Source of the DNA: Rhodothermales bacterium
GTDB lineage: Bacteria > Bacteroidota > Rhodothermia > Rhodothermales > Bin80
Length of the DNA stretch: 64,000 nucleotides
Reading direction: 5' to 3'
Assembly: GCA_022820435.1 (NCBI GenBank)
Contig: JAJEFL010000126.1
Location: 4,419-68,418, forward strand
Shown: positions 2,845 through 20,531 of the stretch, in pieces
Position numbering within the stretch: position 1 is the first letter of the stretch
Layout: each line of letters starts with the position of its first letter
Position numbers and translations under genes: made by a program
The notes under the pieces: model-generated
What the model was told of the DNA's origin: nothing
Seen by the model: the letters and a program-made list of their open reading frames with translations, nothing else
Database searches by the model: none

Positions 2845-3722
2845 GTGCTCATCTGATGGCCCATCCCCCAGGACAGTTTTGAGCGGAGCGTACCGAAATA
2901 GTGTGTATCTGCAAACCGGATCAGCTTGATGGAATGATCGGCCCGGCGGATCGTGTAGGGGTCCTGCTTTTGAGAAATGAGCTGTGTGCGGCCATCCAGT
3001 GCAATCGTGCAATCCGATGAACTTGCGGCTAGCTGCAGGGCCAGGGTTGATTGTGCGGGCAGGATGATCGGACGGACAGTCAGGCTGTGCGGCGCAACCG
3101 GGCTCACGAGGATTACATTGCTCCCCGGCATGACAATAGGCCCGCCCACGGCCAGCGAATAGGCAGTTGAGCCCGTCGGAGTCGCAATAATCAGCCCGTC
3201 TCCCCAGTAGCGGTTCAGCTTGGTTCCGTCAACCAGTACATCTATTACTGCAAGTCCGCCTGCAGGCCGTCGGGTAACGACAATGTCATTGAGGGCCCAG
3301 CCGGTGTGTGGGCCGGTCAGACTGAGTGCGCTTCGGTGCTCAATCTGGTATTGGCCCGTACGGAGTAAGTGGAGTGCATGCTGAATCCGGCCGGCCTCAA
3401 CATAGGCCAAAAATCCAAGATGTCCAATGTTGACCCCCAGAATGGGTACGCCCGCCCCGCCAACCTCAAAAGCGGTGTGCAAAAGGGTCCCATCCCCTCC
3501 GATAGAAAGGATCACGCTACTTGTGCGGGCAAGTGTATCTGTGGACACCCTTTCTGCACGCTCAGCCGAGATGAGCGAACGCTTCAGCAGGCCGTCAGTA
3601 ACGGGACGATGCAGTTGATACTCAACCCCTTTTGCCTCCATCCAGGCGATCAATTGCCGGATGAGCGGCCATAACCCGTCCTTTGTTGTGTTTCCCGTAA
3701 TCCCGTAGATTATCTTTGCCAT
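2841..3722 (-). CDS. nadK: NAD kinase
   Basis: 293 aa with the GGDGTLL motif and the NDIVV...TPTGSTAYSLAVGGPIV region typical of NadK/PpnK. Confidence 0.9.
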   Translation of the reverse strand: MAKIIYGITGNTTKDGLWPLIRQLIAWMEAKGVEYQLHRPVTDGLLKRSLISAERAERVSTDTLARTSSVILSIGGDGTLLHTAFEVGGAGVPILGVNIGHLGFLAYVEAGRIQHALHLLRTGQYQIEHRSALSLTGPHTGWALNDIVVTRRPAGGLAVIDVLVDGTKLNRYWGDGLIIATPTGSTAYSLAVGGPIVMPGSNVILVSPVAPHSLTVRPIILPAQSTLALQLAASSSDCTIALDGRTQLISQKQDPYTIRRADHSIKLIRFADTHYFGTLRSKLSWGMGHQMST

Positions 3723-3793
3723 GAGCAGTTCAAGCGTGAAGGGGTTGATAAATTAAGCTAGACAGCGTAATTTGCATAAGAGCATTCAGTGTC

Positions 3794-5050
3794 ATGGCCC
3801 GACATATTGTCATTATTGGAAATGGGATCACCGGTATTACCGCTGCGCGGTTTATACGAAAGTTAAGCGATGACCGTGTCACGGTGGTATCCAGTGAAAC
3901 GGATCACTTCTACGCACGAACGGCGCTGATGTACATTTACATGGGGCATATGCGCTATCAGGAGACCAAACCCTACGAAGACCATTTCTGGTCCAGGAAC
4001 CGGATCAACCTTGTCCGGGGGTATGCAGTTCAGATTGACCCTGAGCAGAAAGTGGTCCGAATTGCAGATGGGAATGATATCGCCTACGATGCACTTCTTC
4101 TGGCCACGGGATCCCAGTCAAATAAATTCGGATGGCCGGGGCAGGATTTATTGGGGGTGCAGGGGTTGTACGGGATGCAGGATTTAGCATTGATGGAGCG
4201 GAATACCCAAAATATCACACATGCCGTGGTGGTGGGAGGAGGACTGATTGGAATTGAGATGGCCGAGATGCTTCATGCCAGACAGATTCCCGTCACCTTT
4301 CTGGTTCGGGAAAACAGTTATATGGACTACCTGCTGCCCAAAGAAGAGTCTGCCTTCATCAACCGTGAGATTGCTGAGCACGGGATTGATCTAAGACTGA
4401 ATACGGAACTGAAGTCCATCCGCGGACGCAAAACCGCGGAAGCCGTTGAGACTAGCCAAAATGAGCGTATTGAGTGTCAGTTTGTCGGCCTCACTGCAGG
4501 GGTTCATCCGAATATTGACCTTGCGAAAGCTTCCGGAATTGACACGAACCGGGGCATTGTGGTGAATGAATTCTTTGAAACCAGTCTCCCGGATATCTAT
4601 GCCGCAGGAGACTGTGCAGAATTCAATGCAGACGGCATTGGGAGCCGGCGGATTGAACAGTTATGGTACACGGGTCGGGCGCATGGGAAAGTCGTTGCGA
4701 AGACCCTGTGTGGACACCGGACCCCGTACCGGAAAGGAGTGTTTTTTAATTCGGCGAAATTTTTTACGATGGAATATCAAACCTACGGTGATATATCTGC
4801 TCAGTCGGAACCACATATACGATCCCGGTTATTTCAGAGCGGGAGGAAGCTTTTGCGGATCAACAGTGACCGGGAATCGGGCAGAGTTCTGGGATTCAAT
4901 GCAATGGGAGTGCGACTGCGGCAGGATCAGTGTGAGGCATGGATTCGCAGCGGCACCTCCATAAAAAAGGTGCTCGCTTCTCTGGGGAAGGCGCGGTTTG
5001 ATGCCGAATTTTATTCAAATGCGGTGTATCGTCAGGCCGCAGCGGTATAG
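3794..5050 (+). CDS. FAD-dependent pyridine nucleotide-disulfide family oxidoreductase
   Basis: N-terminal IVIIGNGITGITAA Rossmann motif, a second VVVGGGLIGIEMA motif and a YAAGDCAE FAD-binding motif. Confidence 0.8.
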   Translation: MARHIVIIGNGITGITAARFIRKLSDDRVTVVSSETDHFYARTALMYIYMGHMRYQETKPYEDHFWSRNRINLVRGYAVQIDPEQKVVRIADGNDIAYDALLLATGSQSNKFGWPGQDLLGVQGLYGMQDLALMERNTQNITHAVVVGGGLIGIEMAEMLHARQIPVTFLVRENSYMDYLLPKEESAFINREIAEHGIDLRLNTELKSIRGRKTAEAVETSQNERIECQFVGLTAGVHPNIDLAKASGIDTNRGIVVNEFFETSLPDIYAAGDCAEFNADGIGSRRIEQLWYTGRAHGKVVAKTLCGHRTPYRKGVFFNSAKFFTMEYQTYGDISAQSEPHIRSRLFQSGRKLLRINSDRESGRVLGFNAMGVRLRQDQCEAWIRSGTSIKKVLASLGKARFDAEFYSNAVYRQAAAV

Positions 5051-17600: not shown

Positions 17601-17752
17601 GATTACAGAGAATCGTTACGGGGCGGGATGTACAGGATGGTTTGTACATCAGTCCATGGACGGAGAATTCAAGTGAGGGAAGGTTGATATCTGATGCTAA
17701 CGGTCTGGATGAATCGGTTCTTTCACACTTACATCGAAAAAACTGATCCAGT

Positions 17753-17839
17753 TGGTGCCCGGGACTGGAATCGAACCAGCACGCCCGTAAGGGCACTGCC
17801 CCCTCAAGACAGCGCGTCTACCTATTCCGCCACCCGGGC
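17753..17839 (-). tRNA. tRNA-Leu(GAG), type II, CCA encoded
   Basis: Hand fold: GCCCGGG/CCCGGGC acceptor, GCG/CGC D stem, CTGTC/GGCAG anticodon stem with loop TTGAGGG, GCCC-TTAC-GGGC long variable arm, GCTGG/CCAGT T stem with TTCGATT loop, then ACCA. Confidence 0.9.
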
Positions 17840-17842
17840 TGA

Positions 17843-18245
17843 TGGTGATCCCGCCAGGGCTCGAACCTGGGACCCTCTGATTAACCTACCACACCGGCTT
17901 TCACCGGCCATCAATACGCATGTTGTGGTCTGGACCATCTCTTCACCCTTCCATATAAGGGGTGGGGTGGGCTGCGTATGGCCTCTGAGGGCTCTCTTGA
18001 ATCCGCACGATGCGGAACAGGGCGCAGGATGATTCCCTGTGACCCGGCACGGTCAAAGGAAAATGACTGGATTGCCCAATTCAAGGTTGCCTGCTGATTA
18101 CCCATCTATCCGCCGCATTTTTACGTGTGACGACGTATCGACGGCTTTAGGGCGTTCCAGCATACAGCAGCCTCCACTCACACAGTTTCCTGTATAAGGC
18201 TCCATGACTTAAAGTCAGATGCTCTTCCAACTGAGCTACGGGATC
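17843..18245 (-). tRNA. tRNA-Lys(UUU), split gene (5' exon 18245..18212, 3' exon 17884..17843), CCA encoded
   Basis: The joined exons give a perfect 76-nt cloverleaf: GATCCCG/CGGGATC acceptor, GCTC/GAGC D stem, TCTGA/TCAGA anticodon stem with loop CTTTTAA, GGGTC variable loop, and CCAGG/CCTGG T stem with TTCGAGC loop. Confidence 0.85.
17885..18211 (-). ncRNA. group I intron (IC3-like, ORF-less) in the anticodon loop of tRNA-Lys
   Basis: The insert follows U34 and ends in G. A hand fold gives P1-P9 in canonical order, with a bulged-A P7 and an S-like AAGAGAUGGUCC element (details in findings). Blocks GAGCCUU..GGAAAC and UGGGCAAUCC match the trnL(UAA) intron. Confidence 0.7.
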
Positions 18246-18303
18246 AGAATGTAGAGAACTGGCGGCCTGCCAATCTACGGCAAATCTTCCGAACAGGTGT
18301 CCT

Positions 18304-18705
18304 TCAACCCTGTATCTCCCAGAGTGTTTGCATGGGGAAGCGAAGGATCAGTTGTCCCTTCAACTTTGAAGGATCGAAATTGATGAATCCATGCGCCAGA
18401 TAGATCTCGGAAGGGAGGCAGCGCCAGAGGAATTTGAGTTCCCGGTCTCCCTGACGGTAATCATGTGTAAGGATCAATCCGACCAGCTGCTCTCGGCCAG
18501 AGCCCACAAATACATCCACTTCGGCCCCGTCGGAACTTGTCGTATTGCGGATGAATCCGTAATCCATCGGGTAAATAATTTCGGGATACCGCGGATGGGG
18601 GGTTTTTGCGGGGCGGTCCAGCAGGACTCCCTGGGAGAGAATTAATCTCTCCCAGCGATCCCACGGGAACCGGTCTTGCAATAACGCCGCATAGGCATCG
18701 GTCAT
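18304..18705 (-). CDS. inorganic pyrophosphatase-like small protein
   Basis: YPMDYGFIRNTTSSDGAEVDVFV resembles the family I PPase metal-binding segment (YGFIP.T...DGDP.DV). ATGA overlap with the aspS stop. Confidence 0.55.
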   Translation of the reverse strand: MTDAYAALLQDRFPWDRWERLILSQGVLLDRPAKTPHPRYPEIIYPMDYGFIRNTTSSDGAEVDVFVGSGREQLVGLILTHDYRQGDRELKFLWRCLPSEIYLAHGFINFDPSKLKGQLILRFPMQTLWEIQG

Positions 18706-20531
18706 TCGGACTTCGGGATGGACTGAATGTTTAACTCCTGAAGTCGATCCGGCTCCACCGTTGAGGGGGTGCCGGACATGGGTTCCTGTGCACTCTGTGT
18801 CTTTGGAAATGCAATCACATCCCGAAGCGAGGTGGATCTGGAGAGCAGCATGACAATCCGGTCCAGTCCCATTGCGATGCCCCCGTGCGGCGGCGCACCG
18901 TAACGCAGTGCGTTCAATAAGAATCCAAACCGTTCTTCACTCTCCTTTTCGGGAATTCCCAGCGCATCAAACATTTGCTTTTGAACGTTTTTGTCATGGA
19001 TACGAATGGAGCCTCCACCGATCTCCATGCCATTGAGCACGATATCATAGGCGCGGGCCCGAACATGTGCGGGATCATGTTGGAGTAACTCCAGATCCTC
19101 TGTTCTTGGGGAGGTAAACGGATGATGCATGGCGGAATAGCGTTTTTCGCGTTCATCCCATTGCAGGAGCGGGAATTCAGTGATCCATGCAAACGTCCAC
19201 GCGCGTTCATCAATGCTGCCAAGTTCACGGGCCATATGCAGGCGCAGGGTTCCCATCTGCTCCTGCACAGTGGGCCATTTACCGCACAGAACGAGCAGGA
19301 GATCACCGGTGTCAGCCCCGGATGACTGGATTGCCCCGGCGACAAATTCATCGGGAAGTACATGCGCTTTTACCGAGCAGTTAGGCGGGGTGCCGTCGGA
19401 GGGGATCCGCACATGAATCAGCCCGCCGGCTCCGATTTGTTTACGCACCACGGTTTTGTCCAGACGATCCATGTAGCCTCGTCCTTTATTGCCAAATCCA
19501 GGAATGACCAGTCCCAATACCGATCCCCCTGCCGAGAGTGCCTGATCAAATACACGGAATCCCGAATTCTCAAAGGTAGAACTGAGATTACATATCGGAA
19601 GATCAAACCGGAGGTCTGGCTTATCCGAGCCGTATTTCCAGAGTGCATCCTGATAGGTCAGGCGTGGGAAGGGGGTCGGGATCGTAACTCCGAGCACTTC
19701 CTCCCAGAGCATGGCCATCAGTCCTTCGGTCAGGGAATAGATCGCCTCTTCGGTTGCGAAGGCCATCTCTACATCAATCTGAGTGAATTCTGGCTGCCGG
19801 TCCGCACGGAGGTCTTCATCCCGGAAGCATTTTACGATCTGAACATATTTATCCAGTCCTCCAATCATCAATAACTGCTTATAGGTCTGTGGACTCTGCG
19901 GAAGGGCATAGAAAGATCCCGGGTGCACTCGACTTGGAACCAGATAGTCACGAGCCCCTTCGGGGGTTGATTTCATGAGGGTTGGGGTTTCCACTTCAAG
20001 GAAGCCCTCTGCATCAAAATAGCGGTGAATCACCTGATATACCTGATGCCGCAGGATCATTTTGTTGCGTAAATCGGGTCTCCTGAGATCAAGATAGCGG
20101 TACTTCAGGCGCAGATCTTCAGAGGCCAGCTTCGCTTTTTGCGTATGGCTGGAAATTGAAAATGGCGGAGGTTCGGATTCGGCAAGAATGAGGAGACTCG
20201 TCACCCGCACCTCAATCTTTCCTGTTGCCAATTTGGGGTTTACGGTTTCTTCTGAGCGCAAGGAGACCGTCCCCGTAATGGAGATCACATATTCGCTGCG
20301 CAGGCGGTCTGCAAATTCGTGTGCAGCGGGATTATCCTGTGGTGAGAATACAATTTGTGTCAGACCATAGCGATCCCGGAGGTCAATGAAAATAACCCCT
20401 CCCAAATCACGTCGTGTATCCACCCATCCTTTCAGGACAACTTGCTCACCCAGGTGGAACTCCGAGAGTTCGCCGCAGGTATGGGTTCGATCTGGATGCT
20501 GATTTGTCGTATTCTCAGAAAAGCTAGACAT
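18702..20531 (-). CDS. aspS: aspartate--tRNA ligase
   Basis: 609 aa with an OB-fold N-terminus, the class II motifs FRDEDLRADRQPEFTQID and GGGSIRIH, and GLDRIVMLL. Confidence 0.95.
   Translation of the reverse strand: MSSFSENTTNQHPDRTHTCGELSEFHLGEQVVLKGWVDTRRDLGGVIFIDLRDRYGLTQIVFSPQDNPAAHEFADRLRSEYVISITGTVSLRSEETVNPKLATGKIEVRVTSLLILAESEPPPFSISSHTQKAKLASEDLRLKYRYLDLRRPDLRNKMILRHQVYQVIHRYFDAEGFLEVETPTLMKSTPEGARDYLVPSRVHPGSFYALPQSPQTYKQLLMIGGLDKYVQIVKCFRDEDLRADRQPEFTQIDVEMAFATEEAIYSLTEGLMAMLWEEVLGVTIPTPFPRLTYQDALWKYGSDKPDLRFDLPICNLSSTFENSGFRVFDQALSAGGSVLGLVIPGFGNKGRGYMDRLDKTVVRKQIGAGGLIHVRIPSDGTPPNCSVKAHVLPDEFVAGAIQSSGADTGDLLLVLCGKWPTVQEQMGTLRLHMARELGSIDERAWTFAWITEFPLLQWDEREKRYSAMHHPFTSPRTEDLELLQHDPAHVRARAYDIVLNGMEIGGGSIRIHDKNVQKQMFDALGIPEKESEERFGFLLNALRYGAPPHGGIAMGLDRIVMLLSRSTSLRDVIAFPKTQSAQEPMSGTPSTVEPDRLQELNIQSIPKSE

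Follow-up and report, generated by a model that had tools for sequence, protein, structure and literature searches.

How does a gene whose anticodon is cut apart by more than three hundred nucleotides (nt) still supply a tRNA? The question is raised by the window studied here, the whole 64,000-nt stretch of DNA that we analysed from a Rhodothermales bacterium, in which a tRNA-Lys(UUU) gene is encoded in two pieces on the minus strand. The 5' exon (18212..18245; GATCCCGTAGCTCAGTTGGAAGAGCATCTGACTT) supplies tRNA positions 1-34 and ends in C32-U33-U34, and the 3' exon (17843..17884; TTAATCAGAGGGTCCCAGGTTCGAGCCCTGGCGGGATCACCA) supplies positions 35-76, including A73 and an encoded CCA at 17843-17845. 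Between them lies an insert of 327 nt (17885..18211), in which position n equals 18212 minus the window coordinate; every feature described below is on the same minus strand. That the insert is a group I intron without a credible open reading frame (ORF), splitting the gene between U34 and U35, is supported by a match to the RF00028 covariance model, by covariation, by conservation and by syntenic loci that lack it. Very probably, the locus is a chromosomal tRNA-Lys(UUU) gene with a 327-nt group I intron at position 34/35, free of any homing endonuclease gene and predicted to splice to a normal tRNA.

Would removal of the insert leave a normal tRNA? When joined, the exons form a perfect 76-nt cloverleaf with A73 and an encoded CCA, which ARAGORN calls tRNA-Lys(ttt). 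The insertion point lies between U34 and U35, so that a U precedes the insert, and G327 closes it. An earlier interpretation made from the letters of the window, referred to below as the sequence-only reading, had proposed these same exons and this same insert; on re-reading the sequence its coordinates and letters matched exactly, and both its perfect cloverleaf and its 327-nt insert following U34 and ending in G were confirmed. The predicted ligated junction is TCTGACTT/TTAATCAGA (a slash marks the splice site here and below), and the intronless insertion site reads GAGCATCTGACTT/TTAATCAGAGGGTC. A metagenome scan for the intronless junction returned at least 120 matches, mostly from unrelated bacteria with the same anticodon arm, and two of the 120 among the matches listed were close syntenic loci (L151 and L166; L numbers are our labels for loci and contigs from elsewhere). 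At L151:846-920 an uninterrupted tRNA-Lys(UUU), with 2 differences from the spliced product, lies downstream of aspS (67% identity) and of a small pyrophosphatase-like ORF. At L166:3841-4091 the uninterrupted gene has 4 differences, with the small ORF upstream and tRNA-Leu(GAG) downstream, and no aspS was detected at this locus. Both loci read CTGACTTTTAATCAG, which is exactly the predicted ligated junction, and CTT/TTAA has the same letters in these uninterrupted genes. Since syntenic loci exist with and without the intron, it was gained or lost within this bacterial group.

AspRS homologues with 72-100% identity led to the syntenic loci. Nine distinct ones reached the tRNA region, and all of them carried aspS, the small ORF, a split tRNA-Lys and tRNA-Leu(GAG), several of them on closed or megabase contigs. 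Their introns measured 323-345 nt, and their exons were identical except for one D-loop base of the 5' exon in L010. The same arrangement was found in 18 distinct Rhodothermales-type assemblies, including the closed chromosomes OZ253559.1, OZ244626.1 and OY762508.1. The window's AspRS is 100% identical to a protein of the metagenome-assembled genome (MAG) GCA_022825975.1, with the next relatives annotated as Bacteroidota or Rhodothermales. Comparison of window positions 17700-18400 with L001:5132-5831 from this MAG gave 97% identity in the tRNA/intron region and intron lengths 1 nt apart; the window therefore represents a strain distinct from, but close to, GCA_022825975.1. No tRNA lies near aspS in two cultured relatives, Rhodocaloribacter litoris and a Rhodothermus-like genome, which are therefore uninformative on the tRNA-Lys locus.

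Why, if the arrangement is so widespread, is the split gene missing from standard annotation? A search of 900 nt with an E-value threshold, of the kind that the sequence-only reading had proposed, gave a full-length match to RF00028 (Intron_gpI) at 17915..18221 (43.9 bits, E = 9.8e-10, model positions 1-253 of 253). The match is statistically strong but falls short of the gathering score of 50 set for the family. As a result, the intron is invisible to routine annotation: a default Rfam scan of the whole window returned no intron match and reported only tRNA-Leu(GAG) at the locus. Default ARAGORN on the window likewise found the neighbouring tRNA-Leu(GAG) and left the split tRNA-Lys unseen. 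According to Williams 2020 (10.1101/2020.01.27.920355), the Rfam intron family has no bacterial seed, and cut-offs of 18-20 bits were used in that study. With both default ARAGORN and the Rfam gathering threshold missing the gene, genomes of this clade will seem to be without tRNA-Lys(UUU). ARAGORN in intron mode, a check that the sequence-only reading had proposed, did detect the split gene and labelled it tRNA-Asn(gtt) i(34,327) instead of tRNA-Lys. The program gave a tRNA-Asn(gtt) i(34,...) label to most of L011-L130 as well, because most members of this intron class end in GG.

Does the insert fold as a group I intron, and is the fold maintained in relatives? Pairs were counted in an alignment of 18 distinct Rhodothermales introns (A1), both for the fold drawn by the sequence-only reading and for the fold implied by Rfam and homology. 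Because P3, P4, P7 and P8 never vary within the clade, cross-phylum alignments were used in addition, one of 34 sequences (A2) and a further set of 91. For the Rfam/homology-implied fold, 89% of the cells in A1 were paired as compared with 33-41% in slid controls, and 38 pairs showed changes on both sides. The corresponding values in A2 were 93.7% and 32-45%, with double changes in 27 of the 51 pairs, and the set of 91 sequences agreed with this result. None of 500 shuffles reached the observed pairing, double changes or covariation score in A1, nor did any of 500 reach the observed values in A2. Covariation supports P1, P2, P3, P7, P8 and P9, and an unconstrained minimum free energy fold recovered P2, P3, P4, P5, P5a/b, P6a, P8 and P9 (z = -1.96).

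P1 (18200..18214) pairs C32-U33-U34 and U1 (A2) with the guide G12-A11-G10-G9 (U8), and U34.G10 forms the splice-site wobble. Its C:G, U:A and U.G pairs, the U34.G10 wobble among them, are invariant in the 91 sequences, where pair 1:9 is C-G in 69, U.G in 20 and U-A in 2. The Rfam alignment puts its conserved U.G on exon U34 (18212) and intron G10, which confirms the guide pairing of G10-A11-G12 with C32-U33-U34 proposed by the sequence-only reading. P2 is a hairpin with a GAAA loop (18177..18198; intron 14-22/27-35), 96.9% paired in A1 with 6 of its 9 pairs double-changed. P3 joins GGCUGC (intron 40-45; 18167..18172) to GCAGCC (intron 237-242; 17970..17975); across phyla it is 100% paired with four compensatory pairs (A2), and pair 43:239 occurs in all four Watson-Crick types in the 91-sequence set (A-U 27, C-G 21, G-C 21, U-A 20). 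The 5' strand of P7, G227-(A228 bulge)-G229-G230-C231-C232-A233 (17979..17985), pairs with UGGUCC at 275-280, which follows J8/7 AAGAGA at 269-274 (J8/7 and P7 3' strand together, 17932..17943). P7 is 100% paired in both the 34 and the 91 sequences and has one compensatory pair, 232:276, which is C-G in 20 and U-A in 14 of the 34 sequences and C-G in 68 and U-A in 23 of the 91, with zero mismatches under a search pattern that permitted them. G229:C279, which from established knowledge of group I structure we take to be the guanosine-binding pair, is invariant next to bulged A228 in A1 and A2. P8 (17944..17969) pairs CACCC (243-247) with GGGUG (264-268) and has a variable distal part; it is 100% paired in the clade and 95% paired across phyla, with 2 compensatory pairs in A2 and with pair 244:267 as A-U in 67, G-C in 14 and G.U in 10 of the 91 sequences. 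The P9 domain (17885..17929) consists of P9 (283-287/320-324), a hairpin at 290-292/301-303 and a GAAA-capped hairpin at 305-309/314-318, followed by A325-G326 and the terminal G327 (17885). It shows covariation in A1, A2 and the 91-sequence set; G327 is invariant in the 34 and the 91 sequences, and position 326 may be G, A, U or C in relatives.

In the P4-P5 domain (18092..18162), P4 pairs UGCUGG (50-55) with UCAGCA (115-120) and is followed by J4/5 AAC, P5 (59-62/109-112), P5a (68-73/97-102) and P5b (75-79/86-90). P4 is invariant and 99.5-100% paired in A1 and A2, and five of the six P5a pairs carry double changes in A1. P6 and its extension occupy 17990..18091: P6 itself (121-123/220-222) is 100% paired in the clade, P6a (127-133/210-216) is 87% paired with double changes at 4 pairs in A1, and further hairpins complete a lineage-specific extension of ~96 nt. 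Rhodothermales introns are 80-130 nt longer than the ~240-260-nt actinobacterial members, almost wholly in P6; these actinobacterial introns and other relatives of ~240-260 nt are without the extension. A hairpin loop of the extension holds an invariant GUG.C (intron 162-166; window 18046-18050; A1 columns 204-208), which could be a tertiary-contact or binding site. In P5, CCUAAAG...GAUGG (window 18145-18152 and 18100-18107) resembles an 11-nt GAAA-tetraloop receptor, and GAAA loops are present in L2 and in the P9-domain hairpin of the window intron.

The fold of the sequence-only reading was right only in part. Its P1, P2, P3, P7 and P9 are 96-100% paired in A1, and P2, P3, P7 with bulged A228, J8/7 AAGAGA and P9 hold in relatives as it described them. 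Lack of support for P3, P4 and P7 in related genomes, which it had regarded as fatal to the idea, was not what we found, since P3 and P7 show covariation, and P4 strict conservation. Four of its helices had to be redrawn. In the 18 relatives its P4 (49-55/142-149) was 47.5% paired, its P5 (59-62/135-138) 56% and its P8 (248-252/264-268) 77%, all with no changes on both sides, and its P6 (151-159/212-220) was 61% paired with three double-changed pairs. P4, P5, P6 and P8 as corrected above are 97-100% paired in A1. The wrong register of P8 traces back to a tandem repeat of CACCC (243-247 and 248-252), of which only the first copy is conserved.

Is there a protein-coding gene in the intron? It had been described as ORF-less, which stands in substance and not to the letter: a 64-amino-acid (aa) ORF is present at 17911..18105, running over P4'-P9 of the catalytic core. 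It matches no Pfam family, and relatives do not keep its frame: the stop-free runs in their introns differ in frame and length. With no conserved ORF, the intron can be treated as ORF-less. Searching the P6 extension by tblastn with the PF11645 proteins of two viral relatives (L276 and L263, described below) revealed no endonuclease remnant, the matches being limited to the ribozyme-core part of those ORFs. The window intron does not qualify as a mobile group I intron with a homing endonuclease gene.

The two-step splicing pathway of group I introns, guanosine attack followed by exon ligation, is well established and can be traced on this sequence. The tRNA-Lys would presumably be transcribed together with tRNA-Leu(GAG), which begins 3 nt downstream of the tRNA-Lys CCA. 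The intron would fold into its P1-P9 core, including the P3/P7 pseudoknot, and the guide G10-A11-G12 would pair with C32-U33-U34 of the anticodon loop, placing U34 in the U.G wobble of the 5' splice site. Docked at G229:C279 in P7, beside bulged A228, a free guanosine would attack after U34. G327 would then occupy the G-site and the 3'-OH of U34 would attack the bond before U35, by which the exons would be joined to a normal 76-nt tRNA-Lys(UUU) and the intron released. The analysis shows the sequence, the fold (by covariation), the exact junction (by comparison with the intronless loci) and their conservation, whereas catalysis itself we infer from the established pathway. If this is the sole tRNA-Lys(UUU) gene, decoding of AAA codons in these bacteria would depend on ribozyme activity and the wobble modification of U34 would have to follow splicing.

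Other explanations of the locus have to be weighed against a spliced tRNA-Lys gene. The window comes from a metagenome-type assembly, and its tRNA/intron region falls short of full identity to the nearest public MAG (97%), which could fit the chimera that the sequence-only reading had raised as an alternative, or a mis-join. However, the same arrangement is present in the 18 distinct Rhodothermales-type assemblies, closed chromosomes among them, and in more than 60 genomes of other phyla. These independent assemblies refute the chimera and exclude an assembly artefact, and we assign that explanation virtually no probability. The label given by ARAGORN -i to the window locus and most relatives points to another reading, that of a tRNA-Asn(GUU) gene whose intron would be inserted one base further upstream, at 33/34. 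In the window this shifted register, too, has a U before the intron and a terminal G. In many relatives, however, L009, L023, L025, L043, L053, L063 and L085 among them, the last base but one of the intron is A, U or C, which leaves the shifted register without a terminal G; the L009 intron, for example, ends in ...GGTAAG/TTAATC, and a final G is found in the Lys register only. At its 5' splice site the shifted register would have U-A in place of the U.G wobble, which Rfam puts on U34:G10. The discriminator A73 fits Lys, in agreement with tRNA identity rules, as bacterial tRNA-Asn has G73. Finally, the joined sequences were called tRNA-Lys(ttt) in 82 of 82 resolved relatives, and the intronless syntenic genes are tRNA-Lys(ttt). 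Given an invariant U-1.G and terminal G next to a varying penultimate base, only the Lys register works. The tRNA-Asn(GTT) call was rejected on the terminal-G register, the U.G wobble, A73 and the intronless syntenic tRNA-Lys genes, and it retains a very slight chance of being correct.

A harder question is whether the intron still splices, or whether it is a decayed relic that has left the tRNA-Lys locus a pseudogene. The lack of a homing endonuclease gene in the intron and the RF00028 score below the gathering score would both be compatible with decay. The exons, however, show little or no change even among relatives with AspRS identity down to 72%, and each element of the catalytic core is either invariant or compensatorily changed; no variation occurs in U-1.G, in the terminal G or in the G-binding pair beside the bulged A. 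Pairing that persists through 27-38 double changes is not what a pseudogene would show. Conserved exons and compensatory changes therefore argue against a decaying pseudogene, which we regard as improbable, though less so than the tRNA-Asn register. Several observations do weigh against a splicing intron and keep our confidence in it short of certainty. Besides the sub-gathering score, P4 and most of P7 never vary and so lend support through conservation, not covariation; no convincing P10 pairing was found by inspection; and a scan for sigma-70 type promoters and terminators returned no terminator and one chance-level promoter-like site, inside the intron. Selection for splicing is something we infer from conservation only. 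On the supporting side, published catalogues list this intron class, and other group I introns of bacterial tRNA genes have been seen to splice in vitro (Nakagawa et al., mSystems 2026, PMC13011429), the experimental confirmation in that study being confined to 35/36 introns of Patescibacteria. A refinement of the spliced tRNA-Lys reading, rather than a competitor to it, is that a protein or a condition, acting through the ~96-nt P6 domain, is required for or modulates the splicing of a genuine intron, which would make the supply of tRNA-Lys(UUU) regulatable. Nakagawa et al. (PMC13011429) speculated in general on regulatory roles of tRNA introns. The added length of the Rhodothermales introns lies nearly all in P6, and the extension varies in sequence and length yet keeps its invariant GUG.C loop and a paired P6a. 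On the other hand, the distal P6 helices are poorly supported, at 38-70% paired in A1, and no candidate partner was identified. Peripheral extensions are also frequent in group I introns and mostly serve only to stabilise the fold. Tuning through P6 appears unlikely, though less so than decay.

How far does this intron lineage extend? One genome per species was scanned with the core pattern TCAGAGRCYA-N(20-50)-GAAGAKATRGTCCAG, which runs from the P7 5' strand through J8/7 and P7', giving at least 120 matches. The arrangement CTT/intron...G/TTAA was found in at least 82 species genomes (82 of the 120 among the matches listed), and all 82 joined sequences are tRNA-Lys(ttt). Hosts among the matches listed are mainly Actinomycetota (Microbacterium, Agromyces, Solirubrobacterales, Thermoleophilaceae and Svornostia abyssi), together with Planctomycetota (Isosphaeraceae, Singulisphaera and Paludisphaera), Chloroflexota and Patescibacteria; the same matches include ten further Rhodothermales/Bacteroidota MAGs, nine of them within the 82 and one, L076, resolved by exon motif. 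The window intron aligns with 73 further Lys 34/35 introns. The same P7/J8-7 core was also seen at 34/35 of tRNA-Arg(UCU) in L031, L038, L091 and L107 and of tRNA-Ser(UGA) in L120, the latter in an intron of 657 nt. Related cores may occupy 34/35 of tRNA-Lys(UUU), tRNA-Arg(UCU), tRNA-Ser(UGA) and tRNA-Leu(UAA) because the guide pairs only with C32-U33-U34, which is common to all U34 tRNAs. The core pattern occurs as well in the archaea-binned contigs L081, L096, L119 and L129 (Bathyarchaeota, Hecatella, Nitrososphaerota and an unclassified archaeon), in which ARAGORN found no split tRNA; these matches may represent group I introns of rRNA or other genes, or the contigs may be mis-binned.

Thirty IMG/VR contigs contain the same core pattern. 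In the 180-kb contig L276 (IMGVR_UViG_3300025584_000449), a tRNA-Lys(UUU) gene has a 708-nt intron of the same lineage at 34/35 (3536-4243 minus); its D-arm and anticodon arm are identical to those of the window's gene, and a tRNA array (Val, Gln, Ile, Met) lies nearby. The tRNA-Lys(UUU) of L263 (IMGVR_UViG_3300006563_000045) has a same-lineage intron of 648 nt at 34/35. Both introns hold an ORF of ~165 aa within P6 that matches PF11645, a PD-(D/E)XK endonuclease family (E = 2.3e-18 in L276 and 4.8e-17 in L263), and AAGGAG precedes the ORF in L276. A phmmer search of PDB with the L276 endonuclease returned nothing significant, and the Pfam match is the sole evidence for its family. The ~96-nt extension of the window intron sits at the place in P6 where L276 and L263 carry the endonuclease ORF. 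Seven other viral contigs (L252, L257, L262, L270, L260, L272 and L274) read CTT/...G/AAAA, that is, tRNA-Leu(UAA) at 34/35 with introns of ~720-760 nt sharing the P7/J8-7 pattern; ARAGORN labels some of these genes tRNA-Phe, and the introns presumably carry an endonuclease gene. Taken together, a tentative history can be proposed, which we hold to be possible though more doubtful than not: the window intron may descend from a phage-borne tRNA-Lys intron with a PF11645-type endonuclease in P6, its lineage may have spread over at least five bacterial phyla by homing or by reverse splicing into the near-universal C32-U33-U34 and anticodon arm of tRNA-Lys(UUU), and the vacated P6 site of the Rhodothermales introns may have become the conserved GUG.C domain, with a role in folding or in control of tRNA-Lys supply. 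Syntenic loci with and without the intron, members in several phyla and endonuclease-bearing phage-like copies make up a data set on the persistence and spread of endonuclease-free introns.

The surroundings of the gene are those of a bacterial chromosome. The tRNA-Leu(GAG) gene (17753..17839) was called by ARAGORN and scores 48.6 bits against the Rfam tRNA model, and its pairing with tRNA-Lys is kept in all syntenic relatives. Also in the neighbourhood are aspS (18702..20531), the small pyrophosphatase-like ORF, a POT-family transporter, folP, cdaA and pcm. The small ORF encodes 133 aa (18304-18705), shares 4 nt with the end of aspS and matches pyrophosphatase families only weakly. It lies directly upstream of tRNA-Lys in all relatives, including the intronless L166, and it is also present in the Rhodothermus-like genome that has no tRNA there.

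How does the intron compare with known systems? The intron of cyanobacterial and plastid tRNA-Leu(UAA) (Anabaena/Nostoc, IC3) shares with it the U34/35 position, the C32-U33-U34 exon end, a GAG-type guide with a U.G wobble and GAAA loops in L2 and the P9 domain, and it is likewise ORF-less, at ~250 nt. It differs in its tRNA, in having no P6 extension and in its core, which reads AAAUUCGGGGAA...CAAUCCCGAGCC and GUAGAGACUA as compared with UAUGCUGGAAC...UAAUCAGCAGGC and UCAGAGGCCA in the window. The Azoarcus tRNA-Ile(CAU) intron (IC3), for which crystal and cryo-EM structures exist, is likewise compact, with P2-P9 and GAAA tetraloops, and has CCUAAG...UAUGG as its P5 receptor, to which CCUAAAG...GAUGG of the window intron corresponds in position; it is 205 nt long, however, and inserted at 36/37. 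Introns with PD-(D/E)XK endonucleases of the I-Ssp6803I type (PF11645) are found in tRNA-fMet of Synechocystis and in tRNA-Arg(UCU) of Bacteroidota and Campylobacterota. The L276 and L263 introns combine such an ORF in P6 with the lineage of the window intron, which itself has neither an endonuclease gene nor a detectable remnant of one.

The sequence-only reading knew of no such intron in tRNA-Lys or in this kind of genome, a claim that the literature contradicts: the class is already known, having been catalogued in 2020 and again in 2026, the latter with a Bacteroidota homologue. Williams 2020 (10.1101/2020.01.27.920355) widened the bacterial tRNA/intron settings from 4 to 21, with Mle24.Lys.3Ug, Mpe6.Lys.4Ug and Dba165.Lys.2Ug among the seeds. 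Nakagawa et al. (PMC13011429) surveyed 4,934 complete genomes, and although the main text does not discuss tRNA-Lys, Table S5 gives 'Lys (TTT) 34/35' for four Actinomycetota genomes and for the Bacteroidota genome GCA_951812585.1, whose intron is 327 nt long. Members of this Lys 34/35 class have the same tRNA, site (CUU/...g/UUAA), U-1 and terminal G as the window. Mle24.Lys.3Ug, of the Lys.3Ug class, has the same setting and core motifs and belongs to the same lineage; together with two of the Actinomycetota entries it shares UAUGCUGG(G/A)AC.CCC ... GGG(U/C)AAUCAGCAGG and CUCAGAG(A/G)C(U/C)A with the window, and Mle24 also shares AAGA(U/G)AU(A/G)GUCCAGA. The Rhodothermales members differ by their ~96-nt P6 extension, which is missing from the actinobacterial Lys introns. 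The other two of the four published Actinomycetota Lys introns (IC3) have a different core lineage, reading GUAGAGACUG ... AAGGGACAGUCC, and with two core lineages at tRNA-Lys 34/35 the site was therefore colonised at least twice.

In its architecture the window intron looks IC3-like, with a GAAA-looped P2, no P2.1 and a receptor-like motif in P5, whereas published labels for its homologues differ: the automated classifier of PMC13011429 assigned IB4 to the intron of GCA_951812585.1, IB2 to two actinobacterial relatives and IC3 to the two other actinobacterial Lys introns. With its relatives classed as IB2 or IB4, the lineage may differ in structure from the classical tRNA introns of subgroup IC3. 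The nearest published counterpart is the intron of GCA_951812585.1, which shares the window intron's length of 327 nt, has nearly identical exons and core blocks 83-84% identical to those of the window, and is homologous to it, probably as an ortholog.

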